From positions 3,901 to 67,900 of the forward strand of contig JBFFRY010000002.1 of the NCBI GenBank assembly GCA_041572755.1: a stretch of 64,000 nucleotides of DNA. Reading direction: 5' to 3'. The notes under the pieces were generated by a model. It saw nothing but the letters and a program-made list of their open reading frames with translations. It made no database searches and had not been told where the DNA came from. Every line of letters begins with the position of its first letter. Position 1 is the first letter of the stretch. Position numbers and translations under genes: made by a program. This DNA is from Acidimicrobiia bacterium. Its GTDB lineage: Bacteria > Actinomycetota > Acidimicrobiia > Spongiisociales > UBA11373. Shown piece after piece: positions 47,881 through 64,000 of the stretch.

Positions 47881-50103
47881 ATGCGAAAACTGCTCACGTT
47901 CACCGTTGCTCTCGCCCTCACGGCGGTGAGCTGCAGCCAGTCGGAGGGGACCGCCACGACGACGTCGTTCCCGACGGCGACGACCACGGGAGGCACCTCG
48001 GCGATTGCCGAGCGGTTCGACCCCTCGTCGATCAGGTTCGAGGCTGCCCTGGAGCGCTTCGATCGTTGTGAGGGGGTGCTCGAGCACTTCATCGCCGAGG
48101 CGCTCGAACGGGTCGGTCCCTACGGACTGGACGGCGGTGGACCGGTAGTCATCATGGAGGACGGGGTCGCCTTCGCCGCCGAGGGAGACGAGGCGGCTGC
48201 TCCTATGACCACGATGGTCACCGACCTCGACCGACCAGGCGACGACTTCTCGGGCACGAACGTGCAGGTCGCCGGTGTCGACGAGCCGGATGTGATCAAG
48301 ACGGACGGTGATCGGATCGTCGCCATCGTCGAGCGGAAGCTCTACTACGTCGATGTGAGCGGATCGGTGCCCGAGTTGCTCGGATCGCTCTACCTGGGCG
48401 ATGCGTGGGGTCACACGATGTTCGTGAGTGGTGATCGGGCGTTCGTGTTCGCCACCGGCTACGGGATCGCCCCGCTTCCGGCTACGGCCGAATCCTCGGT
48501 GATCCCTTCCTACGGCGAGACGACCGTGATTCAGGAGATCGACCTCTCCGATCCCGAGGATCTCGAGGTGGTGCGGACCATGACGGTCGAGGGTCGTCTG
48601 CTGAGTGCCCGATCGATCGGGGACACCGGTCGGATAGTGCTCTCCTCGTACCCCGCCGAGCTCGCCTTCGTCTACCCGAGCGGGCCGGCGGCCGAGCCGA
48701 TCGCCGAGCAGACGAACCGCCAGATCGTGCAGAACAGCATGCTGGACGACTGGCTCCCCAACTACACGGTGACCGACGGCGACTCGATCGTGGATCAGGG
48801 CCTGCTGGTCGACTGTGACGGCGTGCATGCCCCCGCCGAGTTCGCCGGCTTCAACACCGTCTCGGTGGTCACCGTCGACTTCTCAGAGGGGCTGGGTTCT
48901 TCCGAGTCGGTCGGGGTGATCGCCAACGGCGAGACGATCTACGCCTCGACGGAGAGCCTCTATGTGGCGACCAACGTCTGGGTCCCCGGTGAATGGATCG
49001 GCGACACCAGCCTGGGCGACTTCGAGGAGGAGTACAGCACCGCCGTCCACAAGTTCGACATCTCCGGTGAAGGTCCCGCCGAGTACCGCGCCTCCGGCAG
49101 CGTGGACGGCCACCTGCTCAACCAGTTCTCCATGGACGAGTACGAAGGCAGGCTCCGGATCGCCACCACCGACGGCCCCCCGTGGGGCTTCGGCGACGAA
49201 TCGGAGTCGTTCGTGGTCGTGCTGGAGGAAGACGGCGACCGTTTGGTCGAGGTCGGCCGGGTCGGCGACATGGGCCGCGGTGAGCGGATCTTCTCGGTGC
49301 GCTTCATCGGTGAGGTCGGCTACGTGGTGACGTTCCGACAGACCGATCCCCTGTATGTGGTGGACCTGCGCGACCCGGGGAACCCCACCGTCACGGGCGA
49401 GCTGAAGATCCCCGGATATTCGGCCTACCTGCATCCGATCGGCGACGGCCGGCTGATCGGCGTGGGCCAGGAAGCCACCGACGAGGGCTTCACGATCGGG
49501 GCCAAGGTGTCGCTGTTCGACGTTTCGGATCCGACCGATCCACGCGAGGTGGACACCTGGGTGCTCGAAGGCGGCTACACCGAGGTGGAGTGGGATCACC
49601 ACGCGTTCCTCTACTGGGCGCCGGAGAACCTCGCCGTGCTCCCGCTCCAGGACTGGTCGACCGGTTTCTTCGGCGGGGTGGCGTTGCGGACCGACGACGG
49701 TCTGCGCGAGTTCGGTCGCATCACCCACGAGCTCGGATCCGTGCAGGGAGCGTCGGACTGCCGTGAGGTCGAGATACCGGAGGAGTACTACGAACCGGGC
49801 CTGATCGTGCAGGTCTGTGGAACGGACGACGTCGGCGGCTACGGGGCTCACGACTGCGAGGTGATTCCCGCCGAAGAGGCCCGGTTGTACTCCGAGGACT
49901 TCGACGTGATCGGGTACGACGTCGACGAGTTGATGGGCGACGACGATCGGTTGGAGATCTGCTTCCCGCCGTACGATGAGAGCCGGGCGGCGATCCAACG
50001 GTCCCTGGTGATCGGAGACTCGCTGTGGACGCTCTCGTGGCGGGCTCTCCAGGCCAACGCCCTCGACAGCCTCGAGGTGGAGCACACGATCCCGTTGGGA
50101 TAG
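47881..50103 (+). CDS. Large secreted lipoprotein of the beta-propeller-domain family (Beta_propel-like). The start was re-assigned to the ATG at 47881 (MRKLLTFTVALALTAVSCS).
   Basis: Lipobox. T-rich linker. The C-terminal region YVVDL.DP..P...GEL.IPGYS.YLHP..DG.L.G.G...... then V.LFDVSDP..P.....W matches my recollection of the archaeal/bacterial beta-propeller domain family. The ORF-track N-terminal 114 aa are a shadow of the thioesterase gene. Confidence 0.7.
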   Translation: MRKLLTFTVALALTAVSCSQSEGTATTTSFPTATTTGGTSAIAERFDPSSIRFEAALERFDRCEGVLEHFIAEALERVGPYGLDGGGPVVIMEDGVAFAAEGDEAAAPMTTMVTDLDRPGDDFSGTNVQVAGVDEPDVIKTDGDRIVAIVERKLYYVDVSGSVPELLGSLYLGDAWGHTMFVSGDRAFVFATGYGIAPLPATAESSVIPSYGETTVIQEIDLSDPEDLEVVRTMTVEGRLLSARSIGDTGRIVLSSYPAELAFVYPSGPAAEPIAEQTNRQIVQNSMLDDWLPNYTVTDGDSIVDQGLLVDCDGVHAPAEFAGFNTVSVVTVDFSEGLGSSESVGVIANGETIYASTESLYVATNVWVPGEWIGDTSLGDFEEEYSTAVHKFDISGEGPAEYRASGSVDGHLLNQFSMDEYEGRLRIATTDGPPWGFGDESESFVVVLEEDGDRLVEVGRVGDMGRGERIFSVRFIGEVGYVVTFRQTDPLYVVDLRDPGNPTVTGELKIPGYSAYLHPIGDGRLIGVGQEATDEGFTIGAKVSLFDVSDPTDPREVDTWVLEGGYTEVEWDHHAFLYWAPENLAVLPLQDWSTGFFGGVALRTDDGLREFGRITHELGSVQGASDCREVEIPEEYYEPGLIVQVCGTDDVGGYGAHDCEVIPAEEARLYSEDFDVIGYDVDELMGDDDRLEICFPPYDESRAAIQRSLVIGDSLWTLSWRALQANALDSLEVEHTIPLG

Positions 50104-50130
50104 GAGCGCGGGGCGGCGGATAATCGTCGC

Positions 50131-51066
50131 ATGAAGCTGCAGATCGGTGTCTCGGAATGCCTGCTGGGCCGGAAGGTGCGCCACGACGGAGGCCACAAGC
50201 ACGATCGGTTCCTGACGGAAACGCTGAGCACCTGGGTCGATTGGGTACCCGTGTGTCCCGAGGTCGAGATCGGCCTCGGGACACCGCGTCCGGCGATGCG
50301 GCTCGTGGCCGAGGGCACCGGGGCTCGCCTGGTGGTCCGCAGCACCGGCGAGGACCTCACCGAGCGCATGCGAACGTGGGCCGAGCAACGCCTCCCCGGT
50401 TTCGCCGCTCTCCACGGCTTTGTGCTGAAGAAGGACTCACCGTCGTGCGGCATGGAGCGGGTGAAGCGTTACACCGACGACGGAAACCTGGTGGGGAAGG
50501 ATGGGGCGGGCATCTTCGCCGCCGCTCTGACGGAGGGGTATCCGCTCCTTCCCGTGGAGGAGGAAGGCCGGCTCAACGACCCGGTGCTCCGGGAGAACTT
50601 CATCGAGCGGGTGTTCGCCTATCGCCGCTGGGGTGAGTTCCTCGACACCGAGCCGGGACCCGGGGGTCTGGTGGCGTTTCACACGGCGAACAAGATGACC
50701 CTGCTGTCGCACCATCCGCAGAAGTACCGGGAACTGGGCCGGTGGGTGGCGGAGGCGGGCCGGCGACGGGGGGCCGTCGCCGAGTACGGGGCCGCCTACA
50801 TGGACATATTGAGGCATCGGGCGACGCGCAGCCGGCATCGCAACGTGCTGCAGCACCTGATCGGGCACTTGAAGAAGGTGCTCGACGGGGACGATCGCCG
50901 GGAGCTCGTCGAGGTCATCGACGACTACGGAAGGGGCGAGGTGCCGCTGGTCGTGCCGCTGACCTTGTTCCGGCACCATTTTCGGCGCCACGGCACCGAC
51001 TGGGTGTTGGCTCAGACCTATCTCGATCCGTATCCGTCGGAGCTGATGCTCCGCAACCACGTCTAG
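50131..51066 (+). CDS. DUF523 (TudS-like 2-thiouracil desulfidase fold) fused to DUF1722 (YbgA-like).
   Basis: IGVSECLLGRKVRHDGG ... CPEVEIGLGTPRP (DUF523 Cys ligands), then a C-terminal YbgA-like helical domain. Confidence 0.7.
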   Translation: MKLQIGVSECLLGRKVRHDGGHKHDRFLTETLSTWVDWVPVCPEVEIGLGTPRPAMRLVAEGTGARLVVRSTGEDLTERMRTWAEQRLPGFAALHGFVLKKDSPSCGMERVKRYTDDGNLVGKDGAGIFAAALTEGYPLLPVEEEGRLNDPVLRENFIERVFAYRRWGEFLDTEPGPGGLVAFHTANKMTLLSHHPQKYRELGRWVAEAGRRRGAVAEYGAAYMDILRHRATRSRHRNVLQHLIGHLKKVLDGDDRRELVEVIDDYGRGEVPLVVPLTLFRHHFRRHGTDWVLAQTYLDPYPSELMLRNHV

Positions 51067-51070
51067 GACC

Positions 51071-51436
51071 ATGAACCCGGCCATTCGTCAGGCATTGAAC
51101 ACCGACCGGACCATCGACATCACCACCCGCGGCCGTCACAGCGGTGCCGAGCGGCGCCTGGAGATGTGGTTTCACAACGTCGACGGCCGGATCTTCATCA
51201 CCGGGATGCCCGGTCGCCGCGACTGGTACGCCAATCTGGTGGCGAACCCGGAGTTCACGTTCCATCTCAAGGAGAGCGTCGCCGCCGATCTGGCGGCGGT
51301 GGCGGTTCCCGTCACCGACCCCGAACATCGACGGCCGATCCTCGCCGAGATCACCGGCCGGCTGGGGCACGCCGACCGCCTCGACACCTGGGTGGAGCGG
51401 AGCCCGCTGGTCGAGGTCCACTTCGAGGATGGATAG
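51071..51436 (+). CDS. Nitroreductase-family deazaflavin (F420)-dependent oxidoreductase (DUF385).
   Basis: ITTRGRHSGAERRLEMWFHNVDGRIFITG...DWYANLVANPEFTF. The DUF385 signature (TTtGRKSG.pR..pL........vvas.GG...p.Wy.NL.A.P.v). Confidence 0.7.
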   Translation: MNPAIRQALNTDRTIDITTRGRHSGAERRLEMWFHNVDGRIFITGMPGRRDWYANLVANPEFTFHLKESVAADLAAVAVPVTDPEHRRPILAEITGRLGHADRLDTWVERSPLVEVHFEDG

Positions 51437-52172
51437 GATCCCGGCCGTGGGTCGGGGTCGCTTCCTGTACGTCTTCATGCACCTGCCCAAGACGGGCGGC
51501 ACCACCATCAACGGCCATTTCTACGACCACATGGACTGGGACGTCGACGTGGTCCACCTCGGCAAGTGGGGGGATCGCTACCGAACTCGGGAACGGCGCC
51601 CTTCACTGCAGGAGCGATCGGCCGAGGAGCGGGCGCGCATTCGGGTGCTCACCGGGCACGGCACCTACTACGGGATCCACGGGTTGATCGAAGGCACCAC
51701 CCCGCGCTACCTCACGATCGTGCGGGACCCGGCCGATCGCATCGTCTCCACCTACAACTTCCGGGCCGCCCGGGGTGAGGTCGGTGACTTCTGGTCCTGG
51801 TACGCCGGGTTCCCTCGGAACGCCGGAGTGAAGTGGCTGCGGAAGCGCCTCGGGGGCCCCCGGTCGTTGAAGGAGATCACCGAGGCCCTGCGCGGGTTCT
51901 GGTTCGTCGGTGTCACCGAGCGCCTCGACGAGGACCTGCCCCGGGTGTTCGGGGCGCTCGGGCTCCCGCCCGGGTTCCGCACGAGGCGGGTGGCGGGGGC
52001 CGAGCGGGATCTCGAAGGACTGGACCATCCGGATGAGGAACGGCGCGTTCAGCGCCGGATGGTCGTCGACCACGAGATGCGGGCCCGCCTCCATGAGGAG
52101 AACCCCAGAGACCTTCGCCTGTATGAGTTTGCGGTGGGTCGTCGAGACCACCTGCGGGATTCGCTTCAGTAG
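51429..52172 (+). CDS. Sulfotransferase, family-2-like (carbohydrate sulfotransferase type). Its start overlaps the DUF385 stop by 8 nt.
   Basis: FMHLPKTGGTT (5'-PSB of Sulfotransfer_2-type enzymes, h-h-H-hPKTGGTS), 247 aa. The ORF-track N-terminal 95 aa are a shadow of the DUF385 gene. Confidence 0.65.
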   Translation: MDRIPAVGRGRFLYVFMHLPKTGGTTINGHFYDHMDWDVDVVHLGKWGDRYRTRERRPSLQERSAEERARIRVLTGHGTYYGIHGLIEGTTPRYLTIVRDPADRIVSTYNFRAARGEVGDFWSWYAGFPRNAGVKWLRKRLGGPRSLKEITEALRGFWFVGVTERLDEDLPRVFGALGLPPGFRTRRVAGAERDLEGLDHPDEERRVQRRMVVDHEMRARLHEENPRDLRLYEFAVGRRDHLRDSLQ

Positions 52173-53088
52173 CCGAGCTCGGAGAGGAGATCACCGATCT
52201 CTCGCCGAAGGAGCTCGGCGTCGTGTGCCTCGAGTTCGGCTTCCCAGCGCCCCTGCCGGTCGTCCCGGGCTTCGTTGAAGACGTCGAGGGCCGCGGCGCG
52301 GGATCCGGTCGGGACCCCGAGGAACTCGAGGACGGCGTTGCCGGTGGCCTGGGGATCGGCGACGAGCGCCTCGTAGCGAACCTCGAGGTAGCGGTCGGCG
52401 GGCATCAGCGACCCGGCTTCCCGCGCCGCGGTGACATGGCGACGCCAGCCCCACGCACAGCGGTGGACCGTGGTGGTTTGCTCGAACTCGGCGGCGCGGC
52501 CCGGCTCGACCCAGAAACGGGCGAAGGGGCCGTGGCGGTACCCGCCGGGTTCGTGGCGGCCCAGCTCGGCTCCGGCGGGATCGAGCCAGGGCCGCCGGCT
52601 CCACGACATCGCGGCGTCCCGTCCGTCCCGGATGATGTGCACGAACCGGGCATCGGGGAATGCAGTGGAGAGGAAGCCCAAGATCATGGCGTTGCGGGGC
52701 GTCTTGTCCACCTGACGGAGGTCGCCGTCGCAGCGGAAGCGGGCCAGCCACCGATAGGTGCGCCGGTAGAAGGAGGCGGCTCTCTCGGTGCTCCACAGCC
52801 CGGCGTAGACGTAGGGGGCGGCCGCCTTGGTGAGGACCGGTTCGAAGTGGTACGAGAACTCGGGAACCGCAGCCAGGGCTCTTCCCAGGAAGGTGGTGCC
52901 CGATCGGGGCGCCCCCACGATGAACACCATGTCGCCCAGGACGGGAGCGAGCGACGCCCGGAGGCGGTGGAGGGACCGGCGCCGCCGATGACCGGGCGAG
53001 TAGCGGAGGTCGGCGGCGATCGTCTTGGCGGCGAGCAGGGGCATCCGCCACCACCGCAGAGGCCGGTGGGGGAGGGGGACGGCCGTCA
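52166..53088 (-). CDS. Sulfotransferase (Sulfotransfer_1/3-like, PAPS-dependent). The start ATG overlaps the GT4 stop (ATGA).
   Basis: 5'-PSB IVGAPRSGTTFL and 3'-PB IIRDGRDAAMS; 307 aa. Extracted from the 714-aa ORF-track model 52166..54310, whose upstream part is a shadow frame. Confidence 0.75.
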
Positions 53089-54156
53089 TCGCTTGCCCCC
53101 CAGTCTTGCGACCGCGGCGGCGACCTCGGTCCAGGGGGTGTGGGACGCCGCGGCGCCCCGGGCCAGCGCCTCCAACCCGTCGAGGGCCCGCTCGATCGCA
53201 TCGGCGTATGCATCGGCGTCTCCGGGCGGCGCCAACGTTCCGTTGACGCCTTCCGTGATGCGTTCCGCCAGACCGCCGGCCGTGGTGGAGACGACCGGGC
53301 GGCCGGCGGCGAAGGCGAGGGGAACGATCCCCGACTGGGTGGCGGCCCGATACGGGGTGGCCACCAGGTGGTGGCGTTGCAACAGGTCGGCCACCTGGTC
53401 GTCCCCGGCATACCCGGGGTGCAGCGTCACCAGATCGCCCACACCCAGGGCGTCGATCTGTCGGGTGTAGGCGGCGACTGGGTCCCAGAACTCCCCGGCA
53501 ACGGTCAGGCGGACCGGTCGCTTCCGGTCGCGCAGCTTGGCGATCGCCTCGATGGCCACATCGACGCCTTTGTAGTGGCGCACGAAGCCGAGGAAGAGGA
53601 TCCCCGGAGGTTCGGTCGCCGGGAGTGGCGTGGGGTGGAGATCCAGGTTGGGCGGATGGGGCACAACCTCGACCCGGGGGACCTCGATCACGGTTGCCAG
53701 GTCGGCGGCGACCGCGGCGGCGTGGACGACGACGGCGTCGACCCGGCGTAGAGCTGCCCGGGTGAGCGACCGGGAGAACGGCAGCCGTTCGTGGGGAATC
53801 GCATTGTGGACGACCGCCACCGCCGGTCGGCGGGCGGTGCCGAGCACCCGGCGCAACGGAAGACCGTGGAAGGGGGTGATCCACTGGACGACGACGAGAT
53901 CGGCGGACCGCAGGTCCCGGCCGGCTCGGTGCCACGACAGTGGGTTCCACCATCGGAGCAGGAAGCGAACCCGGGTGTCGTCGGCTGCGGAGGTGTCGAT
54001 CCGGGCACCCTTGTAGAGGAGCGGCGGATACTGGGAGCGCCACGAGACCACGGAGACGTCGTGGCCGAGATCGTCGAGTGCGGCGGCGAGCCGGGCGGTG
54101 TGCTGGGCCACCCCTCCGCGCAGGGGAGGGAACGGACCCACCAGGGAGATGCGCAC
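53086..54156 (-). CDS. Glycosyltransferase family 4 (GT4); GTG start.
   Basis: MRISLVGPFPPLRGGVAQHT (GT4 N-domain), C-domain GILFLGFVRHYKGVDVAIEA...PYRAATQSGIVPLAFAAGRPVVSTTAGGLAE. 356 aa. Confidence 0.85.
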   Translation of the reverse strand: MRISLVGPFPPLRGGVAQHTARLAAALDDLGHDVSVVSWRSQYPPLLYKGARIDTSAADDTRVRFLLRWWNPLSWHRAGRDLRSADLVVVQWITPFHGLPLRRVLGTARRPAVAVVHNAIPHERLPFSRSLTRAALRRVDAVVVHAAAVAADLATVIEVPRVEVVPHPPNLDLHPTPLPATEPPGILFLGFVRHYKGVDVAIEAIAKLRDRKRPVRLTVAGEFWDPVAAYTRQIDALGVGDLVTLHPGYAGDDQVADLLQRHHLVATPYRAATQSGIVPLAFAAGRPVVSTTAGGLAERITEGVNGTLAPPGDADAYADAIERALDGLEALARGAAASHTPWTEVAAAVARLGGKR

Positions 54157-54200
54157 GCGGCGACCCTACCAGCGGCCGGCCCGGCGTCGCCTCCGTATAC

Positions 54201-55131
54201 TGCGCGGCCGATGACCCCCAAGCCGACCCAGGTGCTCTTCGTCGTCGGGAAGGGCCGCAGCGGTACCACCCTTCTCGGGAACCTCCTCGGCCGGGCCGAG
54301 GGTTTCGCATCGGTCGGGGAGTTGTGGCGCCTGTGGCAGGACGACCCTGCAGTCACCCTTTGCGGATGCGGGAGGCTGCTCACCGAGTGTGAGGTCTGGG
54401 CGACCGTGATCGATCGACTGGGGATCACCGCGGAGGTCCGGAGCGAGATGCTCGACCACCAACGGAGGGTGATTTCCTGGCCGGCGGCCCCGGCCATGTT
54501 GTGGGGGCGGCTGAGGAGCCGCCGCTTCGGGCGTGCCCTGACGGCCTACGGGGTCGCCATGGCATCGGTGTACCGCACGGTGGCCGAGTCGACCGGTGCG
54601 GAGGTGGTCATCGATTCGTCGAAGTGGCCGCTGGATCCGGGCCTGGTTGCGGCGGTCGAGGGGGTGGAGGGTTTCGGGGTCCATCTGGTGCGTGACCCCC
54701 GAGCGGTGGCCTACTCGTGGCGGCGCCAGAAGCGCTATCCGGAGGGCGGGGAGATGCCTCGCTTCTCGCCCCTCTATTCGGCCCTCAGCTGGTCGGCTCG
54801 CAACCTTCTGGCCGAACGAGCTCGACATCGGGCCGGTCCCCGATGGCTGCGGGTCCGCTACGAGGACCTGGTGGAGGATCCCGACGAGGCTCTCGCCGGG
54901 ATCGTGAGCCTGGTGGGGCGGACGAACGAGGTCTTGGCGTCCTCGGTGGCCGGGGGGGCGGTGAGCCATACGGTGGCCGGTAATCCGGACCGCATGGCGA
55001 CCGGGCCGATCGAGATTCGCGGTGATGAGGCGTGGAGATCCACCAGCGGCGTTTTCGCCAATTCCGTCGTGACTGCCGTGTGCTTCCCCTGGATGCTGCG
55101 CTACGGCTATCCGCTGCGCCGTCCCACCTAG
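54201..55131 (+). CDS. Sulfotransferase (Sulfotransfer_3 / Stf0-like family). The start was re-assigned to the ATG at 54201.
   Basis: 5'-PSB VVGKGRSGTTLL, SSKWP, 3'-PB HLVRDPRAVAYSW; 310 aa. The ORF-track N-terminal 136 aa (from 53791) are antisense to the GT4 gene. Confidence 0.75.
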
Positions 55132-57215
55132 GGACGGGGCTCGGGCACCGTCACCCACAGCTCCCCGGAGCCGACCCACACGTTGCCGACCGCGTCGAAT
55201 CCGAGCCTGATGAAGACCCGCTGGATCCCGTCTTCGGGGACCGCGCACATGAAGTCGACGGGACCGAAGGCCCGGGGCGTGGTGAAGTTGGATGCGGCCT
55301 CGACCAACCGCCGCTCGCCGGTTTCGTCCTCGAAGCGGCAGGTGATCTTGGGGCTCTTCTGGAGCGGTGTCATGGCGGCCAGATCGAGGCGCGCCGTCAG
55401 GTATGAGCCGGGGGGCACTTCGACGGCTCTGCCGATGGGGGGGCTGTCGAGGCGGACCGGGTCGGTCTCGGCGTCGGTGGCGAACTGGATGGGCGCGGCG
55501 ACGGCCGGGTCGAGTTGGTCCCCGGGCTGCAGGTCGCCGAACGTGAACTGGCGGACGACCCAGGGATGATCGGTCACGCCGAGAGGTCCGGTACTCCACT
55601 CGTCGCGGGTCGGCGCGTTGGTGAGAACGGCGATGCGGCCGTCTCGGGTCACGTGGAGGAGGGACCAACCGGGGGGCCGGGTCACGAGGTAGTCGGGGAT
55701 CTGTTGTTCGGCGCCGGCGAATCTCCACCCGTCGGTGTCGTAGAGGATGATCGAGCCGGTGGGAAGCGCTTCGGGGGGCATGAGCCACTCGTCGCCGAGC
55801 CCTCTGCCGGGGAGGAAGCGGTTGGTGACTGTGGGAGCGAGGCTCTTGAGGTCGCCTTCCCACAAGCCGCCACCGAAGCTGGTGCGGGAGTACATGTCGG
55901 CGAGGCGGAGGCTGTTGGTGTCGGACCAGATGGTGTCATACCCCTGGGCCTCTTCGGCCAGCCAGGTGCGGATCTCGCGGTAGCCGTTGTCGCGGTTGAG
56001 GAAGTAGTTGTCGTCGCCGACGGTGGCCGATGCGGTGAACCCGACGAAGACCGCGGCAAAGACGAGCGGGACGGCCAGGGTGATGGGGCGCCACCGGATT
56101 GCCGTGAACCGTTTGGCGGCCTCGGTGATGGCGGCAATGCCGCCGATGAAGAGCGCCGGCAGGACCGGGAACCAGTAGCGGTCCTTGTCGAGGCGAAGGA
56201 CTCGGCCTCCACCGGGCTTCTCGAACCAGCCGATGGCAGAGAACACCACCCACAGGCCGAACAGCCACAGGGCCATGATGAGGAACCGTCGGGAACGCTC
56301 GACGGACGTCCAGAGGGCGGCCATGGCGGCCAGGCCGAGAAACAGCCACCCTCCCGTCTCCCGGAGCAGCAGTCGCGGCAGCGCGGTGATTGCCTTGAGG
56401 AACGTTCCCTGGAATTCGCGAGCCGAGACCTGCCGCACCACGTCTCCCTTGGAGGTACCGACCCGGCCGAGGAGCACTTCGATCCGGGTGAAGGGGTCAC
56501 CGAACGCCACCCAGTTCCAGGCGAGTTCCGCCGCCAGGACCGCCAGTCCGGCTCCGGCCAGCCACCAGATCTTGCGCCACGGAAGGCGGTACCGCCACCA
56601 GACGAAGAGCACCAGTGGAGCAAGGAAGACGACGACTTCCTTGGAGAGGTAGGCGCCGCCGAACAGCAGCCCGGATCCGATGAGCATGACGTGGGTGGCT
56701 CGCGTCCAGGGCCGGCCCTCCTCGATGCGGACGGCGGTTGCGATGAGCAGCGCCATGCCGCCGGTGAGGAGTGCGGTGGCGGGGAGGTCCGGCCAGACCT
56801 GGCTCGATCGGGTGAGGACGAACGGGTTGAAGAAGACCAGGACGGCGGCCGTGACGCCGACGAGGCGGCCGAACAGGAGCCGCCCGAGGTAGTAGGTGGC
56901 GATGACGAGGAGGCCGCCGACGATGAACGGCACGGCGTAGAACGCCGCCTCGGAGTAGCCGAACGCTCGCTGTGCCAGCCAGACCGGCAACAGCAGCCCG
57001 ATGCGGGTGGTCTTGTGCTCCGGCTCCAGATCGAGGGGATGGTCGGCGGCATCGAAGTAGAAGAAGGGGTCGCGGCGGAACGGGGCCTCGAGGAAGACGA
57101 TCTGGAGGACCAGGTAACCGGCGGCCAGCAGCGCTGCCACCGCCCAGTCGGGGAGCCGTCGGAGGCGCGCCGCCGCAGAGCCGAGGAGAGCGGCGGCTCG
57201 GCTGCTACTCGTCAC
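55128..57215 (-). CDS. GT-C superfamily glycosyltransferase (PMT/ArnT-like, GT39/GT83-type) with a ~290-aa C-terminal extracytoplasmic domain of unknown function.
   Basis: 695 aa, about 11 TM helices. Acidic first-loop motif RRDPFFYFDAADH. Polytopic N-terminal ~400 aa typical of polyprenyl-phosphate-sugar-dependent GT-C enzymes. Soluble C-terminal domain. Confidence 0.7.
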   Translation of the reverse strand: MTSSSRAAALLGSAAARLRRLPDWAVAALLAAGYLVLQIVFLEAPFRRDPFFYFDAADHPLDLEPEHKTTRIGLLLPVWLAQRAFGYSEAAFYAVPFIVGGLLVIATYYLGRLLFGRLVGVTAAVLVFFNPFVLTRSSQVWPDLPATALLTGGMALLIATAVRIEEGRPWTRATHVMLIGSGLLFGGAYLSKEVVVFLAPLVLFVWWRYRLPWRKIWWLAGAGLAVLAAELAWNWVAFGDPFTRIEVLLGRVGTSKGDVVRQVSAREFQGTFLKAITALPRLLLRETGGWLFLGLAAMAALWTSVERSRRFLIMALWLFGLWVVFSAIGWFEKPGGGRVLRLDKDRYWFPVLPALFIGGIAAITEAAKRFTAIRWRPITLAVPLVFAAVFVGFTASATVGDDNYFLNRDNGYREIRTWLAEEAQGYDTIWSDTNSLRLADMYSRTSFGGGLWEGDLKSLAPTVTNRFLPGRGLGDEWLMPPEALPTGSIILYDTDGWRFAGAEQQIPDYLVTRPPGWSLLHVTRDGRIAVLTNAPTRDEWSTGPLGVTDHPWVVRQFTFGDLQPGDQLDPAVAAPIQFATDAETDPVRLDSPPIGRAVEVPPGSYLTARLDLAAMTPLQKSPKITCRFEDETGERRLVEAASNFTTPRAFGPVDFMCAVPEDGIQRVFIRLGFDAVGNVWVGSGELWVTVPEPRP

Positions 57216-58080
57216 GGCGCGCCAGGCGCGCCATCAGGTCGGCGATCAGCCCGATGGCCACGATCTGGAGCGACACGATGGTGAGGATGATCGCGTTGCT
57301 GGTGATCCGAAGGTTCTTGTCGAAGGCGTCGTAGCCGACTTTGGCGGCCGCCATCACCAACAGGAGCATGCCCAGCGGCATGAACACCCGGAGCGGATTG
57401 AACGTCATGATCATGCGTACCACTTGCATGAAGTAGTTGGCGGTGTCGCGGCGCCAATGGAACTTCGACTTGCCGGCTCTGGGGTGGTATTCGATGGGCA
57501 CGTACTTGACGGGGTGGCCTCGTGACAGGAACGCCATGGATATGGTGCTGACACAGGAGAACCCGTTGGGCAGCAGGTAGAGGTAGGGGAGCGCCACGGT
57601 CCTGCGAAAGGCCCGGAACCCGGTGTTGAGGTCCGGGATCTTCTTGCGCACCAGATACGAGGCCAGTCTGCGGATGAACCACTTTGCCGGGACCCGCGCC
57701 CAGCGATGGGTCCCCTCCTCGGTGCGGCGGGCCCCGATCACCTGGTCGTATCCGGGGGTCAACTCGTCGACCAGGTCGGCGATCTTGTCGTTCGGGTACG
57801 ACATGTCGGCGTCCGACCACACCACGATGCTCCCCCGGGCGGCCCGCGTCCCCTGCTTGCGGGCGTAACCCGAGCCCTGATTCTCGGCCACCTCGATCAA
57901 CTTGATCCCGTCGATCCCCCGCAGGATCTCGGTGGACCCATCGGTGGAAGCGTCGTCGACCACGATGATCTCGTAGGCGTAGGGGGAGCCGTCGAGACCC
58001 TTGCGGATGCGCGTGATCTCGTCGGTGAGGTGACCCGCCTCGTTGTGGACGGGCAGGACGACGCTGACGTCGATGGACAC
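57205..58080 (-). CDS. GT2 polyprenyl-phosphate glycosyltransferase (Dpm1/Ppm1/ArnC/GtrB-like) with a C-terminal TM anchor; 11-nt overlap with the GT-C gene.
   Basis: VSVVLPVHNEAGHL, VVDDASTDGS, DADMSYP (DxD), a QXXRW-less short GT2 core, C-terminal TM helices. 291 aa. Confidence 0.9.
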   Translation of the reverse strand: MSIDVSVVLPVHNEAGHLTDEITRIRKGLDGSPYAYEIIVVDDASTDGSTEILRGIDGIKLIEVAENQGSGYARKQGTRAARGSIVVWSDADMSYPNDKIADLVDELTPGYDQVIGARRTEEGTHRWARVPAKWFIRRLASYLVRKKIPDLNTGFRAFRRTVALPYLYLLPNGFSCVSTISMAFLSRGHPVKYVPIEYHPRAGKSKFHWRRDTANYFMQVVRMIMTFNPLRVFMPLGMLLLVMAAAKVGYDAFDKNLRITSNAIILTIVSLQIVAIGLIADLMARLARRDE

Positions 58081-58198
58081 GGCTTCCTCTCGGGTGGATG
58101 CCGACCGAAGGGTAGCGCCAGGTGGTCCCGGCGGGATCAGGGAGCGGTTTCCATTTCGCGGCCGCGAGCGGCGGCGGTGGCGACGTCAGCGGTAGGGG

Positions 58199-58585
58199 TT
58201 ACTCCCAGAAGGCGTCGGCGGCGTATTGGTCCTGGAACGAGATCCAGGCTTCGGTGACCTTGCCGTCGGCGACGTGGAAAGTGATGACCTGCTGCAACGT
58301 CACGGTGTTGCCCTTGCGGGTCATCGTGACGTCGACGAGGGCCACCGCGTGGTCGTCGTCGGCGAGGACGGCATGGAGATCCTGATTGAAGGATTCGACC
58401 TCGGAGGCGAAGCGGCCGAAATTGGCGAACACCGCTTCCTTGCCCTCGAAGGTGCCGGCCATCATGCTCTTGCCGGACGAATGCCACACGGCGTCGTCGC
58501 TGAACAGTGCATCCATGGCGGCCATGTCTCCGCTGGCGAAGGCAGCGAACCCTTTGCGCACCAGATCGGTGTTGGGATGCGACAT
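58199..58585 (-). CDS. NTF2-like (SnoaL / ketosteroid-isomerase-like) superfamily protein.
   Basis: 128 aa; NTDLVRKGFAAFASGDMAAMDALFSDDAVWH is the typical SnoaL-like N-terminus. Confidence 0.75.
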   Translation of the reverse strand: MSHPNTDLVRKGFAAFASGDMAAMDALFSDDAVWHSSGKSMMAGTFEGKEAVFANFGRFASEVESFNQDLHAVLADDDHAVALVDVTMTRKGNTVTLQQVITFHVADGKVTEAWISFQDQYAADAFWE

Positions 58586-58732
58586 CGTTCCTCACTCCCC
58601 TTTCGTTGTGCCCGCCGCGCTGGGCGGCGGGTACCCCCTCCTGTTGAGCGTCGCTCAGATCGGCCCGGACTCTAGACAAGGGTCGGGCTTGTGCACAATC
58701 GCACAAAGTTCCGGGAGTCGAGGGGTGGCTGG

Positions 58733-58779
58733 TGGGCCCGGCTGGGTTCGAACCAGCGACCTCGTCCTTATCAGGGACG
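58733..58779 (-). pseudogene. Partial tRNA-Ile: a 47-nt copy of the 3' half of the nearby tRNA-Ile(GAU) (anticodon arm, variable loop, T arm, 3' acceptor strand, plus an encoded CCA). Candidate att-site direct repeat.
   Basis: 58733-58779 tgggcccggctgggttcgaaccagcgacctcgtccttatcagggacg vs 60790-60836 tgggcccggctggattcgaaccagcgacctcatccttatcagggatg (44/47 identical). Upstream sequence diverges; there is no D-arm or 5' acceptor strand. Confidence 0.65.
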
Positions 58780-59184
58780 AGAGGGGTGTTTCGTTGACCC
58801 GGGGTCGTGCCCGAAACCCCATAGGTGACAACAACTTCCACCCGGCACTCCGGTGCGCCTCGGTGCACTGCTTCGCGGGGCCGCGCGGACTCCATGCGGA
58901 CTCCACAAGACAACCAAACAGGTGGTTGGGCTGCAGCTTGGTTTTGGGGTGCCCATGCACAAGAGGAGGCCGCCCCCCTTGGGGACGGGGAACACATGCC
59001 GCACTTCCCCCGCGCAAATGCACCGGCTCCAGGACATGGCCCAATGCGGGATCATCCGGCAGGAACCTCGTTCGAGGCGCGATGGTGCGGATTGCCCCGA
59101 CGGCTAACCCATCCGGTCGCTACAGTGACCGTTCCGCACGGCCACTCTGGACCGGAGTGGCCGTCTGTCCGTTCAAGGAGAGCC

Positions 59185-60636
59185 ATGGGCAACAACCGGA
59201 TGATCCGTCGACTGGTGCTGGTGATGGCGCTCGTGGTCGTTGCGTGTGGCGACTCGACGGGCACGTCGACCACAACGGGTCCGGGCTCCTCCTCATCGAC
59301 GGAGGGGACGGCGGCTCCATCCACCTCTGCCCCAACCACCACGACCAGCCTCGCCTCAGAGGGAACCGCGGGCTCGTCGACCACGATCGCCGGTGGCTTC
59401 GACGTCGCCGTCGGCGAGTTCTGTGTGACCGGGACCGCTTCCGACGACACGCTCAATCTGCGGGCGGGGCCCGGAACCGAGTTCGAGGACATCGGGGACC
59501 TGGCGTTCGATGCCACGGGCGTCCGCAACACGGGTGCCGGGGCCTACGACCAGCAGGGTCGGCCGTGGTTCGAAGTCGCCGTCGGTGACGGCACGGCATG
59601 GGTTGCATCGTGGTTCTTGATCGCCGCTCCCTGTGAAGCGTCGTCGGGGTTGGTCGAGCCCGACGACGTGGGCGACGATCGGAGGATCGCGGCCCAGTTC
59701 GTGGTCCTGGGCCACAACGGTTTCAGCGTGGGCGATGCGTTCTTCCCGCTGGGATTCGGGCACGGTGTGGACGACGACGAGGTCGTCGCCGTGATGACGG
59801 ACTGGTTGTGGCCTCCCGTCTTCGACTCCGGATGGGAGCCAGACCCGAACACCCCCGGTGCCGAACGGCGTCGGGTGGTGTGGGGCGACGTCACCGAAGG
59901 GGTGCGGACCCCGGGCTCGGGATTCACCCTCTACTTCTCCAACGACGTGGGCAAGCTCGATACGACACCCGGTGGGCTCCTGTGCGACCCGGTGTGCTTG
60001 AACGGGTTCTCCTTTGGCGGGCAACCCGGCGGTATCGCGACGGTGATGCCGGGTATCACGGTCGGCAGCACGATCGGTGAGGTGACGGCGGCCGTGAGCG
60101 TATACCGGCCCGACGTCGGGCTGAACCTCTTCGAGTGGGTCGAGGGGGCGTGGTGGCAACTCGAGGCGGGCAACGGAGAGTTCGGGATCCTGTGCTTCGC
60201 CACCGGCCCCTCCGGCTTCCAGCCTCCCGACACCGCAGTGGTTCGCCACATCGGTGCCGGGTTTGGGCCGGGCTGCTCGCCGGACGGTGACGTCGCCACC
60301 GACCCGAGGGCCTATTACCTGGTCGAAGCCCTGGCCCCTGAGCTGGGAGGTTTCGCCGTGGCCCGCGACGGCGCCATCGTGCGGGGCACCCAGGACGCCT
60401 ACGTCGTCGACTACCGGTCGTGCTGCAAGGGCGACACGCTGTACGCCACCATCAGCTCACCCGAAGGCAACGCAGTGTTCTCGGTCTACGGGCCCGGGGG
60501 CGAGCTGCTGGCGAGCGAGGCAACGACGGTCGATCTCGAACTCGAGGCGGGCGGCGAATACTGGATCACAGTTGGGTCGACGCGCGGGAACGCCTCGTAC
60601 AGCATCGAGATCGGCCTCAGCGAAGACGCCTCCTGA
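59185..60636 (+). CDS. Secreted lipoprotein with an SH3b-like domain, a central unknown domain and a C-terminal PPC-like domain. The start was re-assigned to the ATG at 59185 after the RBS aaggagag.
   Basis: MGNNRMIRRLVLVMALVVVACG (lipobox). S/T-rich linker. LNLRAGPGTEFEDIG...WFEV..GTAWVASWFL (SH3b-like). C-terminal TLYATISSPEGNAVFSVYGPGGELL...GEYWITVGSTRGNASYSIEI (PPC-like). The ORF-track N-terminal 120 aa cross the tRNA fragment and are not credible. Confidence 0.65.
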   Translation: MGNNRMIRRLVLVMALVVVACGDSTGTSTTTGPGSSSSTEGTAAPSTSAPTTTTSLASEGTAGSSTTIAGGFDVAVGEFCVTGTASDDTLNLRAGPGTEFEDIGDLAFDATGVRNTGAGAYDQQGRPWFEVAVGDGTAWVASWFLIAAPCEASSGLVEPDDVGDDRRIAAQFVVLGHNGFSVGDAFFPLGFGHGVDDDEVVAVMTDWLWPPVFDSGWEPDPNTPGAERRRVVWGDVTEGVRTPGSGFTLYFSNDVGKLDTTPGGLLCDPVCLNGFSFGGQPGGIATVMPGITVGSTIGEVTAAVSVYRPDVGLNLFEWVEGAWWQLEAGNGEFGILCFATGPSGFQPPDTAVVRHIGAGFGPGCSPDGDVATDPRAYYLVEALAPELGGFAVARDGAIVRGTQDAYVVDYRSCCKGDTLYATISSPEGNAVFSVYGPGGELLASEATTVDLELEAGGEYWITVGSTRGNASYSIEIGLSEDAS

Positions 60637-60712
60637 CGCCACCTACCGGATCCGAACACGACAGAGCCCCCGGGACACCCCGGAGTTCAAGCTCCGAGGC
60701 CCGTTTCTCTCT

Positions 60713-60743
60713 TTCGGGTGGGGGTGTCACTCACCCACCCGAA
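60713..60743. terminator. 10-bp GC-rich hairpin (TTCGGGTGGG ... CCCACCCGAA) between the convergent lipoprotein gene and tRNA-Ile; terminator-like.
   Basis: Inverted repeat read directly. It lacks a clean U-tract on either strand (aaaaccc / aaagagag follow), so it would be a factor-assisted or weak intrinsic terminator. Confidence 0.35.
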
Positions 60744-60789
60744 AACCCAACCTATCCAGACCCCCCGCAAGTCATGGAGTCCTGAGGAG

Positions 60790-60864
60790 TGGGCCCGGCT
60801 GGATTCGAACCAGCGACCTCATCCTTATCAGGGATGCGCTCTAACCGGGCTGAGCTACGGGCCC
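60790..60864 (-). tRNA. tRNA-Ile (anticodon GAU), 75 nt, CCA not encoded.
   Basis: The minus-strand transcript GGGCCCGTAGCTCAGCCCGGTTAGAGCGCATCCCTGATAAGGATGAGGTCGCTGGTTCGAATCCAGCCGGGCCCA folds as a cloverleaf: 7-bp acceptor, D-arm GCTC/GAGC, anticodon loop CTGATAA, T-arm GCTGG/CCAGC with TTCGAAT loop. Confidence 0.9.
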
Positions 60865-60935
60865 CCGCGGCGCGCGAGTGTACCAAAGGCGACCGCGCTG
60901 CCTTCCGGGCCGTCCCGTCTCGAGGCGAGCGCCCT

Positions 60936-62099
60936 CTACCCCGCCCCGTTGGCCCTCCGGAACACCGCGGCGGCACCCATGCCGCCGCCGATGCACATGC
61001 TCACGACGCCGTACTCCACCGCCCGCCGCTGCATCTCGTGGAGCAGCGTGGCGGTCAGCTTGGCCCCGGTGCACCCGAGCGGGTGGCCGAGGGCGATGGC
61101 GCCGCCGTTGACGTTCACGATCTCGGGATCGAGCCCCAGTTCCCGGATGCAGTAGAGCGCCTGGCTGGCGAACGCCTCGTTGAGCTCGACGAGTCCCACG
61201 TCGGCGAGCGTGATGCCGGCCGCGTCGACCGCCTTGGGAATAGCCACCGAAGGCCCGATACCCATCTCGTCCGGGTGGACCCCGGCCACCTGGAAGGTGA
61301 TCAGCTCGGCGAGCGGCTCGAAGCCCAGCTCGGCTGCCTTCTCCCTCTTCATCAGCAGCTCGATCGCCGCCCCGTCGGACATCTGCGAGGAGTTGCCCGC
61401 AGTCGAGGCGCCATCGGCCTTGAAGGCGGGCCGCAGCTTGGCCAGGCCCTCGAGTGTGCTCTCCCGCGGCCCCTCGTCGGTGTCGACGACGATGTCCCGC
61501 CCGTTCAGCCGCGTCTCGATGGGGATGATCTCCTCCTTGAAGCGCCCCTCGCGCAGGGCGGCGACGGCCCGGTTCTGCGATTCGAGCGCAAAGGCGTCCT
61601 GCTCCTCGCGGGTCACGTTGTAGCGGGCGGCCACGTTCTCGCTGGTGATGCCCATCGACTCGTAGGCGGTGGTGAAGTTCTCCGCCAGCCACGGGTTCGG
61701 CGACGGCTTCTGACCCCCCATCGGAACCATCGTCATCGACTCGACGCCGCCGCTGAGGACGACGTCGGAGAATCCGGCGCTGATCTGGGCGGCTCCGGTG
61801 GCGAGCGTCTGCAGCCCGGAGGAGCAGAAGCGGTTCATCGTCATTCCCGGCACCTCGACCGGCAGTCCGGCCCGCAGCGAAGCGATGCGGGCCACGTTCA
61901 TGCCCTGCTCGGCTTCCGGCATCGCACAACCGACGATCACGTCGTCGATCACGGCAGGATCCAGTTCGGGAACCTGCTTGAGGAACCCCTCGATGAGCAG
62001 ACCCAACAGTTCGTCGGGGCGCGTCTGGCTGAAAGCGCCCCGCTGTGCCTTCCCCACCGCGGTGCGGTAGGCGTGAGTCACCACGACTCCTGTACTCAT
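60936..62099 (-). CDS. fadA: Acetyl-CoA C-acyltransferase (3-ketoacyl-CoA thiolase). The start was re-assigned to the ATG at 62099 ([18 protein letters not shown]...).
   Basis: Active-site Cys (NRFCSSGL), [28 protein letters not shown]. The ORF-track N-terminal 54 aa overlap the fadB end. Confidence 0.9.
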
Positions 62100-62110
62100 T
62101 GGTGTGCTCC

Positions 62111-64000
62111 TTAGTTCCGCAACGGCTTGCCGGTTTCCAACATGTGCATGATGCGAGCCATCGTCTTCTCCTCGCCGCACAGGCTCAGGAAGGCCTCGCG
62201 TTCGAGGTCCAGGAAGTCCTGCTCGGTCCTGCGGGTGCCGCTCGGCACCGAGCCGCCGCACAGCACGGTGGCGAGTTTCCTGCCGATGTGCTCGTCGTAC
62301 TCGCTGATGTACTCGCCCTCGCGCATGCCGTGGATCGCCACCGTGAGCGCAGCGATGCCGCCGTCACCGGGGACCGGTACGGTGCTCGGCATCGGGGGCT
62401 TGAAGCCCATCGCCCCCATCGCCAGGACGTCGGCCTTGGCATCCGCCAGTACGGCGTCGGCGTTCAGGGTGATGCGATCGGTGGGCTTGAGGAACCCGAG
62501 GTCGCGGGCTTCCTCGGCGCTGGTCGACACCGTCGCCGAGCCGATCGTGGTGAAGATCTTTTCCATGAACGGGAAGGTGTCGGCCTTCACTCCCGGCGGG
62601 ATGCTCCCGTAGAAGCGGAAGGCCATCTCCTTGCATCCGCCGCCGGCCGGGATCACCCCCACACCCAGCTCCACCAGCCCGATGTAGCTCTCGGCGGAAG
62701 CCCGTACCGCGTTGCCGTGCATCACGATCTCGCAGCCGCCGCCCAGGGCCATGCCGCGGGGAGCGACCACGACCGGGCCGTCGCAGTACTTCATCCTCAT
62801 GACGACTCGCTGGAGTTCGACGAGGGCCTCGTCGATCTGATCCCACTGCTGGTTCATGGCCGCCATGGCGATCAGGCCCACGTTGGCCCCCACCGAGAAG
62901 TTGGGCGCCTCGTTTCCCACCACCAGGCCGACCAGTTCTCCCGCGTCGACCAGGTCGCAGCCCTTGTCGAGCATCTCGGAGATCGAAGGATCGAGGGAGT
63001 TCATCTTGGTGTGGAACTCCACGCAACCCACCCCGTCGCCCATGTCGTAGAGGGTGGCCCCTTCGTTGCGGTCGATGATCATCTCCCGATCGGCGAGCGA
63101 TGGGAGGAAGATGAGCCGTTCGGCCACCGGCTCCGGCACATAGTCCTCCTCGACCACGTCCCAGTAGTACCGGACGCCGTCGCGGGTCACGTACCAGGAG
63201 CCTTGGCCCCGCTTGAGCAGGTGCTCGACGACATCGGGGACGTCCATGCCCTCCTCACGCATCCGCTGCACCGAGGCTTCGAGGCCGATGGCGTCCCAGG
63301 TCTCGAAGGGACCCAGCTCGAAGCCGAACCCCCACCGCAGCGCCCGGTCGACGTTGATGATGTCGTCGGCGATCTCACCGAGCAGCTGTGCCGAGTAGAT
63401 GCAGTTCTCGGCGGTGACCTTCCACGCCATGCGGCCGTGGTCGTCGTCGAACCACACCATCTCCTTGATCATCTCGGCGGTGGTGTCCTTCACCCGAGCC
63501 GCCCCAATGGACGGCAGCTTGGCCGGGGGCTGCTCGACGTAATCCATGGTGTCGAAGTCGAGGGCGAGAATCTGCGTCTTGCCCTCGGCGTCCTTCGACT
63601 TCTTGTAGAAGCCGGCCCCGGTCTTTGCCCCAAGCCGGCCTTCCTCGACGAGGGTGGCGAACGGCCCCGGCAGCACGAAGCGATCGATCCACGGGTCGTC
63701 GGGGCAGCCCTCGGCGATCGTGTTGAGCACGTGTGCCATCGTGTCCAACCCGACGACGTCGGCGGTCCGGAAGATCGCCGACTTGGGGCGGCCCATGGCC
63801 GAGCCGAACACCTTGTCGGTCTCGGTCACCCCGATGCCGAACTCGGACATCCAGTGGAAGACCGACGTCATCCCGAAGGTGCCGATGCGATTGGCGATGA
63901 AGTTGGGGGTGTCCTTGACGTAGACGATCCCCTTGCCGAGGACGTTCTCGCCGAAGTCGGCCATCGCCGCAAACAGTTCCGGATCCGTCTCCGGGAGCGG
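62111..64000 (-). CDS. fadB: Fatty-acid oxidation multifunctional protein (3-hydroxyacyl-CoA dehydrogenase / enoyl-CoA hydratase, FadB/FadJ-like), 3' portion. The gene continues beyond the window end (the frame stays open through 64000).
   Basis: 3HCDH C-terminal domain followed by the crotonase fold (GGGCEIVMHGNAVRASAESYIGLVELGVGVIPAGGGC...). The last 36 nt of the window translate in frame (…PLPETDPELFAAMADF…). Confidence 0.85.
   Translation of the reverse strand, partial: PLPETDPELFAAMADFGENVLGKGIVYVKDTPNFIANRIGTFGMTSVFHWMSEFGIGVTETDKVFGSAMGRPKSAIFRTADVVGLDTMAHVLNTIAEGCPDDPWIDRFVLPGPFATLVEEGRLGAKTGAGFYKKSKDAEGKTQILALDFDTMDYVEQPPAKLPSIGAARVKDTTAEMIKEMVWFDDDHGRMAWKVTAENCIYSAQLLGEIADDIINVDRALRWGFGFELGPFETWDAIGLEASVQRMREEGMDVPDVVEHLLKRGQGSWYVTRDGVRYYWDVVEEDYVPEPVAERLIFLPSLADREMIIDRNEGATLYDMGDGVGCVEFHTKMNSLDPSISEMLDKGCDLVDAGELVGLVVGNEAPNFSVGANVGLIAMAAMNQQWDQIDEALVELQRVVMRMKYCDGPVVVAPRGMALGGGCEIVMHGNAVRASAESYIGLVELGVGVIPAGGGCKEMAFRFYGSIPPGVKADTFPFMEKIFTTIGSATVSTSAEEARDLGFLKPTDRITLNADAVLADAKADVLAMGAMGFKPPMPSTVPVPGDGGIAALTVAIHGMREGEYISEYDEHIGRKLATVLCGGSVPSGTRRTEQDFLDLEREAFLSLCGEEKTMARIMHMLETGKPLRN

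Follow-up and report, generated by a model that had tools for sequence, protein, structure and literature searches.

A 2-kb islet with a single lipoprotein gene at the 3' end of a tRNA-Ile(GAU) gene in an Acidimicrobiia bacterium: a probable integrase-less remnant of site-specific integration

How did the 3' half of a tRNA gene come to lie a second time, and in the same orientation, some 2 kb away from the gene itself? The question is raised by a stretch of 64,000 nucleotides (nt) from an Acidimicrobiia bacterium (assembly GCA_041572755.1, contig JBFFRY010000002.1, positions 3,901 to 67,900; hereafter the window), in which an intact tRNA-Ile(GAU) gene and a partial copy of it enclose a segment that encodes one lipoprotein. 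A first-pass annotation, made from the letters of the window without database searches, had read this arrangement as a possible remnant of integration into a tRNA 3' end. Our analysis indicated that the segment 58780-60789 (~2.0 kb; hereafter the islet) is probably an insertion into the 3' end of tRNA-Ile(GAU) that was acquired horizontally, the integrase-less remnant of a site-specific integration that holds a captured lipoprotein gene. The islet is bounded by the intact tRNA (attL) on one side and by a 47-nt copy (attR) on the other, and a relative of ~95% identity lacks exactly what lies between these repeats.

The intact tRNA-Ile(GAU) gene lies at 60790-60864 on the minus strand, as first annotated; ARAGORN called it at 60789-60864(-) as the sole tRNA of the 64-kb window, and it matched the Rfam family RF00005 with 74.1 bits. 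A pattern search with the 47-mer of its 3' portion matched 60790-60836 with 0 mismatches and 58733-58779 with 3 mismatches in the same orientation; 0 matches were expected by chance and none occurred in 100 dinucleotide shuffles of the window. A repeat search lengthened this direct repeat by one base, to 58732/60789, giving a 48-nt copy within the intact gene (60789-60836, minus strand) that comprises tRNA positions 27-73 and one further base. The displaced fragment at 58733-58779(-) runs from the anticodon stem to the discriminator and differs from the gene at three positions, two of which are compensatory, in full agreement with the earlier description. The first difference is at T-loop position 60 (58746/60803), where the tRNA strand has C in the copy and T in the gene, and the other two are at position 42 (58764/60821) and position 28 (58778/60835), which together change the anticodon-stem pair A28:T42 of the gene to G28:C42 in the copy. 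On the tRNA strand the copy reads CGTCC-CTGATAA-GGACG-AGGTC-GCTGG-TTCGAAC-CCAGC-CGGGCCC-A-CCA and the intact gene reads CATCC...GGATG...TTCGAAT...A-CTC. CCA is encoded after the copy (58730-58732, minus strand; TGG as printed) and CTC after the intact gene, which has no encoded CCA, a contrast that had also been read correctly at first pass; the CCA after the copy runs on into host flank (58586-58729) toward a gene for a SnoaL/NTF2-like protein.

The copy was not called as a tRNA by ARAGORN and had no Rfam tRNA match even at E<=10, and the 40 nt 5' of it aligned with a tRNA 5' half no better than shuffled sequence did (4553/5000 shuffles scored as well). A second tRNA gene and a pseudogene left by tandem duplication were both rejected as explanations of the copy, as it has no cloverleaf, D-arm or 5' acceptor strand and relatives possess a single tRNA-Ile at the locus; the concern voiced in the first-pass annotation, that the 47-mer might be part of a second complete tRNA, was removed in this way. 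An extension of the repeat into the trailers (CCTC..GACTCC) was also discarded because it was not significant (412/5000 to 1891/5000 shuffles). The fragment is polymorphic in the population, where contig L006 has A for G at 58764 and the G28:C42 pair becomes G.T. Of the marks by which Islander recognizes tRNA islands, an intact target tRNA stands at one end of the insert and a displaced fragment of the same tRNA, in direct orientation, stands at the other.

We refer below to the lineage of the window as W, to the relative with the empty site (contigs L103/L105 and L106) as E and to the lineage of contig L110 as X. When metagenome contigs were scanned for the 47-mer, its three variable positions left free, six loci were returned, five of which came from more distant organisms (L098-L102) where a tRNA-Ala adjoins the tRNA-Ile; in L098, L099 and L102 the two tRNA genes stand beside a thiolase gene only ~42% identical to that of the window. 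The sixth locus, L103, was collinear with the window on both sides of the islet: its positions 1-4333 correspond to window 54455-58777 at 95.2% identity on the SnoaL side, and its positions 4288-5785 correspond to window 60789-62265 at 94.4% on the thiolase side, with the single tRNA 3' half of L103 matching both window repeats. The L103 proteins neighbouring the site were 96-99% identical to those of the window, and no lipoprotein gene was present there. A longer view of this contig (L105; metagenome-assembled genome (MAG) GCA_012974925.1) gave the order thiolase, tRNA-Ile, SnoaL, and the independent assembly L106 showed the same junction as L103/L105. In a three-way alignment the upstream side of L103 was that of attL and its 3' side (CCA-GCACCCCTCGACTCCCG...) was the sequence that follows the fragment, so that the CCA and flank found after the intact tRNA in L103/L105 are those displaced in the window. 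Exactly 2,057 bp, the repeat-to-repeat distance, were present in W and absent in E. An uninterrupted target site in a related genome, a further mark used by Islander, was found in this way, with the tRNA-Ile directly followed by the NTF2-like (SnoaL) gene as the first-pass annotation had predicted for an empty site; the arrangement is also not carried by all relatives, which that annotation had named as the finding that would speak against it.

The occupied state was seen in several assemblies. The window was 99.8% identical to the corresponding contig stretch of a MAG (GCA_041571455.1), and at least five independent assemblies (L001, L002, L004, L006 and the window) span the same arrangement; the short contigs L005 and L009-L011 break at the fragment, as expected of a repeat. 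An apparent adjacency of lipoprotein and SnoaL genes on contig L107, from an 83%-identical lineage, was set aside as a chimeric contig end. The first 301 nt of L107 consist of 190 nt of islet (window 59210-59021, 93.7%) joined with a 15-nt overlap to a 128-nt gyrA-like piece (36358-36485, 84%). The sister contig L108 does not have this patchwork and contains an RTX-repeat open reading frame (ORF) at positions 1-280 in its place; the L107 end is probably an assembly chimera.

The three differences between gene and copy, together with the sequences that follow them, may be used to assign the bases of each copy to host or element. A28:T42 and T60, as in the intact gene of the window, occurred in 6/6 relatives found with this tRNA 3' half, which argues that the G28:C42 and C60 of the copy are foreign to the host lineage and derived from attP. 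Drift in a dead fragment would not be expected to yield a compensated stem pair, and the bases of the copy would therefore come from another functional tRNA-Ile; the first-pass claim that the copy stems from a functional tRNA-Ile and not from random decay was strengthened by the survey of relatives. Descent of the fragment bases from a different functional tRNA-Ile fits a tRNA-like attP, and a G28:C42 stem is present in other tRNA-Ile genes (e.g. L111). A foreign trailer (CTCCTCAGG...) follows the intact gene, and the CCA and flank of host type follow the fragment. Both copies are identical over a 14-nt segment (CCAGCCGGGCCCAC on the tRNA strand; 60789-60802 in the gene and 58732-58745 in the copy, minus strand) placed between the three differences, on its 5' side, and the CCA/CTC difference, on its 3' side. 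By parsimony over the three-way alignment and the tRNAs of the six relatives, strand exchange would have occurred inside these last 14 nt (tRNA positions 61-74), as this is the only arrangement that needs no extra mutation; a crossover in the anticodon loop is less parsimonious, since the fragment would then have had to gain two substitutions afterwards that by chance restored pairing. The CCA-bearing copy accordingly appears to be a hybrid, with positions 27-60 from the element and the last 14 nt, CCA and flank from the host.

These observations are consistent with the following mechanism. A site-specific recombination of the tyrosine-integrase type would have taken place between the tRNA gene (attB) and the attP of an element that carried a stretch resembling a different tRNA-Ile, with G28:C42 and C60, and strands would have been exchanged within the last 14 nt of the gene. 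The element would have supplied a new 3' trailer without CCA, along with a hairpin able to act as a terminator, and the host CCA and flank would have been pushed 2 kb away, behind element-derived positions 27-60; the empty attB predicted on this basis consists of the intact tRNA followed by CCAGCCACCCC and flank. Loss of the encoded CCA would be tolerable because a CCA-adding-enzyme-like gene with PolyA_pol, PolyA_pol_RNAbd and HD domains is present at 13992-15392 on the minus strand. The present islet would be non-autonomous, with its att sites kept and the genes for integration and transfer gone, and its sole expressed content would be a predicted cell-envelope lipoprotein.

What the element brought with it was examined along the islet. 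As first described, one lipoprotein gene (59185-60636, plus strand), the only supported ORF, and a non-coding stretch of ~400 nt lie between the repeats, the non-coding sequence amounting to 405 nt on one side of the gene (58780-59184) and 153 nt on the other (60637-60789). The closest homolog of the lipoprotein outside the lineage, P0002, was 75% identical by BLASTP and 79% identical over residues 72-483 by tblastn, and homologs were very few overall. The P0002 gene (L092/L093) lies directly downstream of htpX, encoding an M48 peptidase, and is followed by a membrane-protein gene; no tRNA lies in its vicinity. A single blastn alignment at 78% joined window 59023-60683 to L092, beginning within htpX and ending 47 nt past the lipoprotein stop codon. 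At its left edge, 36/43 nt (84%) of window 59023-59065 were identical to the 3' end of L092 htpX, and the window retains an htpX stub (59023-59062, plus strand) of the last 13 codons in which the former stop TAG has become CAG; at its right edge, the 3' flank of the lipoprotein gene (60637-60683, plus strand) marks the end of the homology. From these comparisons, ~1.66 kb of the islet is, as judged by homology, chromosomal DNA captured from an htpX-lipoprotein locus, and the cargo is not a recognisable element module. The DNA specific to the element is limited to an arm of 243 nt beside attR (58780-59022), which had no homolog outside the contigs of lineage W, and an arm of 106 nt beside the intact tRNA (60684-60789), which was 98.1% identical in L110; together with the 47-mer these make up ~400 bp, the size of an attP region. 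A near-perfect palindrome with a 12-bp stem (59138-59164, plus strand) is located 20 nt upstream of the lipoprotein start codon and is conserved in both L092 and L110; it may be what is left of an htpX terminator, or else an operator. A hairpin in the 106-nt arm (60712-60744) could serve as terminator for the tRNA and for the convergent lipoprotein transcript alike. The 405-nt non-coding stretch matched no Rfam family and had no unusual fold (z = 0.10), and the two element-specific arms likewise gave neither.

The cargo gene encodes a lipoprotein of 483 amino acids (aa) with a signal peptide and lipobox (VVVAC, then G), a Ser/Thr-rich linker, an SH3b domain, a middle region and a C-terminal beta-sandwich. 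The first-pass label of SH3b/PPC held in its first part, as SH3_3 matched with 29.5 bits when the domain was scanned alone; PPC stands only as a resemblance of fold, in that the modelled C-terminal beta-sandwich is similar to PliG lysozyme inhibitors and to the collagen-binding (PPC-type) domains of collagenases. The structure model of the whole lipoprotein was of low confidence (mean predicted local distance difference test score, pLDDT, 41.9), and only the C-terminal domain was usable (pLDDT 65-86). The lipoprotein is a predicted cell-envelope protein that probably binds peptidoglycan. A second lipoprotein gene in the window (12674-13936, minus strand) had been placed in the same family and taken as a sign of a cell-envelope module, and this was barely supported: the second protein has a Thr-rich linker and a PG_binding_1 domain instead, with 28% identity to the islet lipoprotein over 114 aa (E 0.006).

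A third lineage possesses a longer version of the insert. The 90% cluster of the islet lipoprotein included protein P0027 from MAG GCA_041551965.1, whose contig L110 has the order htpX (at least 115 codons), lipoprotein, 106-nt arm, tRNA-Ile and thiolase. Identity between the window and L110 was 92.2% for the htpX stub and 5' untranslated region, 98.7% for the lipoprotein gene, 100% for 60637-60683, 98.1% for the 106-nt arm and 97.3% for the tRNA, and then fell to 89.9% for the thiolase and 88.2% for FadB. This step in identity at the tRNA points to a recent horizontal spread of the insert between W and X, which are 10-12% diverged in their flanks. At the other end, homology between the window and L110 stops at 59019, where L110 runs into htpX and the window has its 243-nt arm. 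Because X keeps a longer htpX, the islet of the window is probably a shortened version of an insertion partly kept in X, and the earlier description of the islet as decayed is for the same reason (at least 115 htpX codons in X) the favoured reading. The htpX sequence of L110 (positions 1-348) has its M48 motifs changed from EAD to EAG and from THPP to NHPT, and its usual stop codon is read through; the X copy of htpX is possibly also decaying, and possibly a decaying duplicate. Contig L004 (JGI Ga0451568_062115) carries X-type single-nucleotide polymorphisms from the thiolase to ~59579 and W-type ones from ~59367 through SnoaL and a family 2 glycosyltransferase (GT2) gene. This switch of haplotype within the lipoprotein gene reflects either a recombinant strain or an assembly chimera in which the near-identical lipoprotein gene served as the bridge. 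Two independent assemblies, L004 and L110, contain the X-type junction that links thiolase, tRNA and islet, which makes this junction likely to be real.

The first-pass annotation had suggested a search of the genome for tyrosine integrases with an attP containing the 47-mer, and neither turned up in the window ORFs, gene lists and viral, phage and plasmid collections that were searched. The tyrosine-recombinase gene inside the island that Islander also looks for was absent: no recombinase domain was detected among the ~45 window ORFs scanned or in the gene lists of L001 and L104, and six-frame pieces of the islet arms gave no Pfam match and no remnant of a recombinase or integrase pseudogene, in line with the initial statement that no integrase lies between the repeats. 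The genes that typify integrative and conjugative elements (ICEs) as well as their actinomycete forms (AICEs), namely int and genes for replication and for FtsK-like or type IV transfer, were likewise not found in the islet, and no genes of an ICE or an integrative and mobilizable element (IME) were visible on any contig examined. BLAST searches of a plasmid collection and of phages with the whole islet returned matches to tRNA genes only, and scans of viral contigs with the 47-mer, both predicted junctions and the lipoprotein returned nothing. No structural or lysis genes and no phage similarity beyond these tRNA matches were found that would mark the islet as a prophage remnant. A shorter anticodon-arm pattern matched among viral contigs only an unrelated phage tRNA array (L111).

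Several of these results weigh against a site-specific integration event and must be set beside the evidence for it. The viral, phage and plasmid searches turned up neither an integrase or excisionase nor an element bearing attP or a circular form. The comparison of base composition and codon usage between 58780-60789 and its flanks, proposed at first pass, gave no foreign signal: the cargo has a GC content of 0.68 and a third-codon-position GC content (GC3) of 0.85, both inside the host range, and these values do not set it apart from host genes, so that any donor would have been compositionally similar. No significant repeats of arm type were detected, as the 10-mer GGACTCCATG common to both arms was matched by 21% of simulations; the candidate GGACTCCA, which has 3 of its only 4 window occurrences in the arms, was dropped on the same grounds. 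The evidence from lineage X comes from metagenome contigs that are possibly partly chimeric. Finally, the D-loop of the intact tRNA (60848-60851) reads AGCCCGGTTA in W and AGCTCGGTTA in X and AGTTGGTTA in E and in the five distant relatives (L098-L102), so that W resembles X here and not E, although a 3'-end crossover into an E-like gene predicts no altered 5' half. The tract common to W and X may span most of the tRNA, and the D-loop pattern hints at homologous recombination in the conserved tRNA/promoter region, instead of or besides an integrase, during spread of the islet.

Three other accounts of the history of the islet can be weighed against an integrase-less remnant. One holds that the islet is a live minimal element of ~400 bp of attP-like DNA and one gene, excised and re-integrated in trans by the integrase of a tRNA-Ile-specific helper element located elsewhere, and moved in this way between co-occurring lineages. 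Both att sites are indeed intact at the sequence level, the polymorphism of insertion and absence is precise, the element-only DNA (243 + 47 + 106 nt) is of typical attP size, and the islet is 98-100% identical between lineages with 88-90% identical flanks, with the step falling at the tRNA. We nevertheless consider this account improbable, as no helper element, integrase or circular junction was found in the viral-contig searches, the left end in X runs into htpX and not into the 243-nt arm, so that the shared unit is not the same 2 kb, and the D-loop pattern fits homologous recombination. If it were true, the locus would represent a tRNA-targeted gene exchange like that of integron cassettes, with a lipoprotein shuttled among co-occurring Acidimicrobiia-like lineages. 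Little credence can equally be given to an origin without any site-specific recombinase, by which chromosomal DNA of a relative was inserted through illegitimate or homology-facilitated recombination (e.g. end-joining) and the tRNA copy arose as a by-product, either duplicated or donor-derived. Such an origin would account for the ordinary chromosomal nature of the cargo and the truncated gene found at the edge of it, for its native composition and for an islet without a mobile-element gene. It would not account for a directly oriented duplication whose limits are exactly the anticodon stem and the 3' end, nor for a compensated stem pair seen in no relative, which makes the copy neither a decayed nor a duplicated host copy; the new trailer on the intact gene, with host CCA and flank beside the copy, is the reciprocal pattern of attP x attB, and the empty site is exact to the base.

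Alternatively, the polarity may be reversed, with the islet ancestral to W, E and X and the empty site of E formed secondarily by excision or by homologous recombination between the 47-nt repeats. The distribution of the islet, present in W and in the more distant X and absent from E, which is closer to W, agrees with this order of events, and the exact E sequence would be restored by a crossover within the last 14 nt, which both copies share. However, W and X differ by ~1.3% in the islet and by 10-12% in the flanks, so islet and flanks have not descended vertically together, and distant relatives have CC or CCA after tRNA-Ile, as E does, and not CTC. We regard reversed polarity as unlikely, if somewhat less so than the two accounts above, and it would alter the history of the islet and not its nature. 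An assembly artefact, to which the several short contigs that break at the fragment might point, or a second genuine tRNA gene was rejected, given that at least five independent assemblies span the whole arrangement and that the copy has no ARAGORN or Rfam tRNA call and no D-arm or 5' acceptor strand. Site-specific integration followed by loss of the integrase is, in our judgement, still the probable explanation of the locus.

Compared with known systems, the islet is an integrase-less feature similar to a cis-mobilizable element (CIME); it belongs to an already known kind and calls for no new mechanism. A regenerated tRNA gene and a displaced fragment are established marks of island ends (PMC4383910), and displaced tRNA fragments are a widespread by-product of integration (PMC9897764). 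Like the tRNA islands catalogued by Islander, the islet has a regenerated tRNA at one end and a displaced direct 3' fragment at the other and is precisely absent from a close relative (PMC4383910, PMC9897764). At 2 kb and one gene it is far below the described island examples of ~9-121 kb (PMC9897764). Unlike Islander islands, it contains no integrase gene, and its cargo is captured chromosomal DNA; since no integrase was found, the islet cannot be filed as an autonomous island, an ICE/AICE or a prophage. Its block of identity extends from the anticodon stem to the 3' end, as in tRNA-gene genomic islands with displaced fragments, and yet the crossover apparently lay at the extreme 3' end. In the work of Williams from 2002, the 3'-end and anticodon-loop sublocations are said to be usually distinct classes.

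A CIME is a decayed ICE or IME that has kept attL and attR (PMC5704250), and such elements have been described in Streptococcus and not in Acidimicrobiia-like actinobacteria (PMC5704250). The islet shares with CIMEs the retention of attL and attR at the sequence level and the loss of integration and transfer genes. Unlike a CIME, it holds no relic of a conjugation or replication gene, so that descent from an ICE or IME is not among what its sequence shows, and no accretion with a resident ICE was seen. AICEs such as pSAM2, SLP1 and pMEA300 integrate into tRNA 3' ends, and pMEA300 reportedly uses a tRNA-Ile gene. The islet resembles AICEs in its high-GC actinobacterial host and its tRNA 3'-end target, and differs from them in lacking int, xis, rep and FtsK-like tra genes and in matching the plasmid collection only through its tRNA.

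The locus provides a clean case of integration targeted to a tRNA, from a high-GC lineage that is uncultured and little studied. Its occupied, empty and longer states taken together narrowed the putative crossover to 14 nt and showed that the event cost the intact tRNA its encoded CCA. It is the small size, the captured chromosomal cargo, the mapping of the crossover at base level and the occurrence of three states in related populations that make the islet of note, and the comparison suggests that very small islets without an integrase can carry captured chromosomal genes between lineages ~10% apart. Island finders that depend on the presence of an integrase overlook such islands.

The islet sits between the host SnoaL/NTF2-like gene (58199-58585, minus strand; Pfam SnoaL_2, E 2.4e-21), which adjoins the tRNA where the site is empty, according to the gene order of L105, and the tRNA itself, past which lie the host thiolase gene (60936-62099, minus strand; Pfam Thiolase_N and Thiolase_C, called in L001 and L105) and then a FadB-like gene. 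No exact protein match was found for the window thiolase or for ORF 32169-33788, and a scan of a genome collection showed that the closest genomes by thiolase were Acidimicrobiia MAGs. The species with the closest thiolases (L012-L014, 76-77% aa identity) were tried for synteny and discarded, as they have no tRNA-Ile beside the thiolase and hence no usable synteny. To the left of SnoaL, at ~50000-58080, lie conserved glycosyltransferases (GT2 and GT4), a PMT_2-type mannosyltransferase-like membrane protein and three sulfotransferase-like genes, which were also seen in L001, L105 and L107; lineage X possesses an additional gene for a major facilitator superfamily transporter between SnoaL and GT2. 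The window also includes a replication-origin cluster at 24128-37627 with parA, rsmG (gidB), jag, dnaA (28428-29882), dnaN, recF, gyrB, gyrA and a DUF3566 gene, and the distance from tRNA-Ile to dnaA is ~31 kb. Beyond this cluster a cobalamin riboswitch (38550-38680, plus strand; Rfam, 52.3 bits) lies ahead of a Peripla_BP_2 / FecCD / ABC_tran transporter operon (38531-41456). The longest ORF of the first transporter gene begins at 38531 and overlaps the riboswitch, and the true start is probably further downstream.

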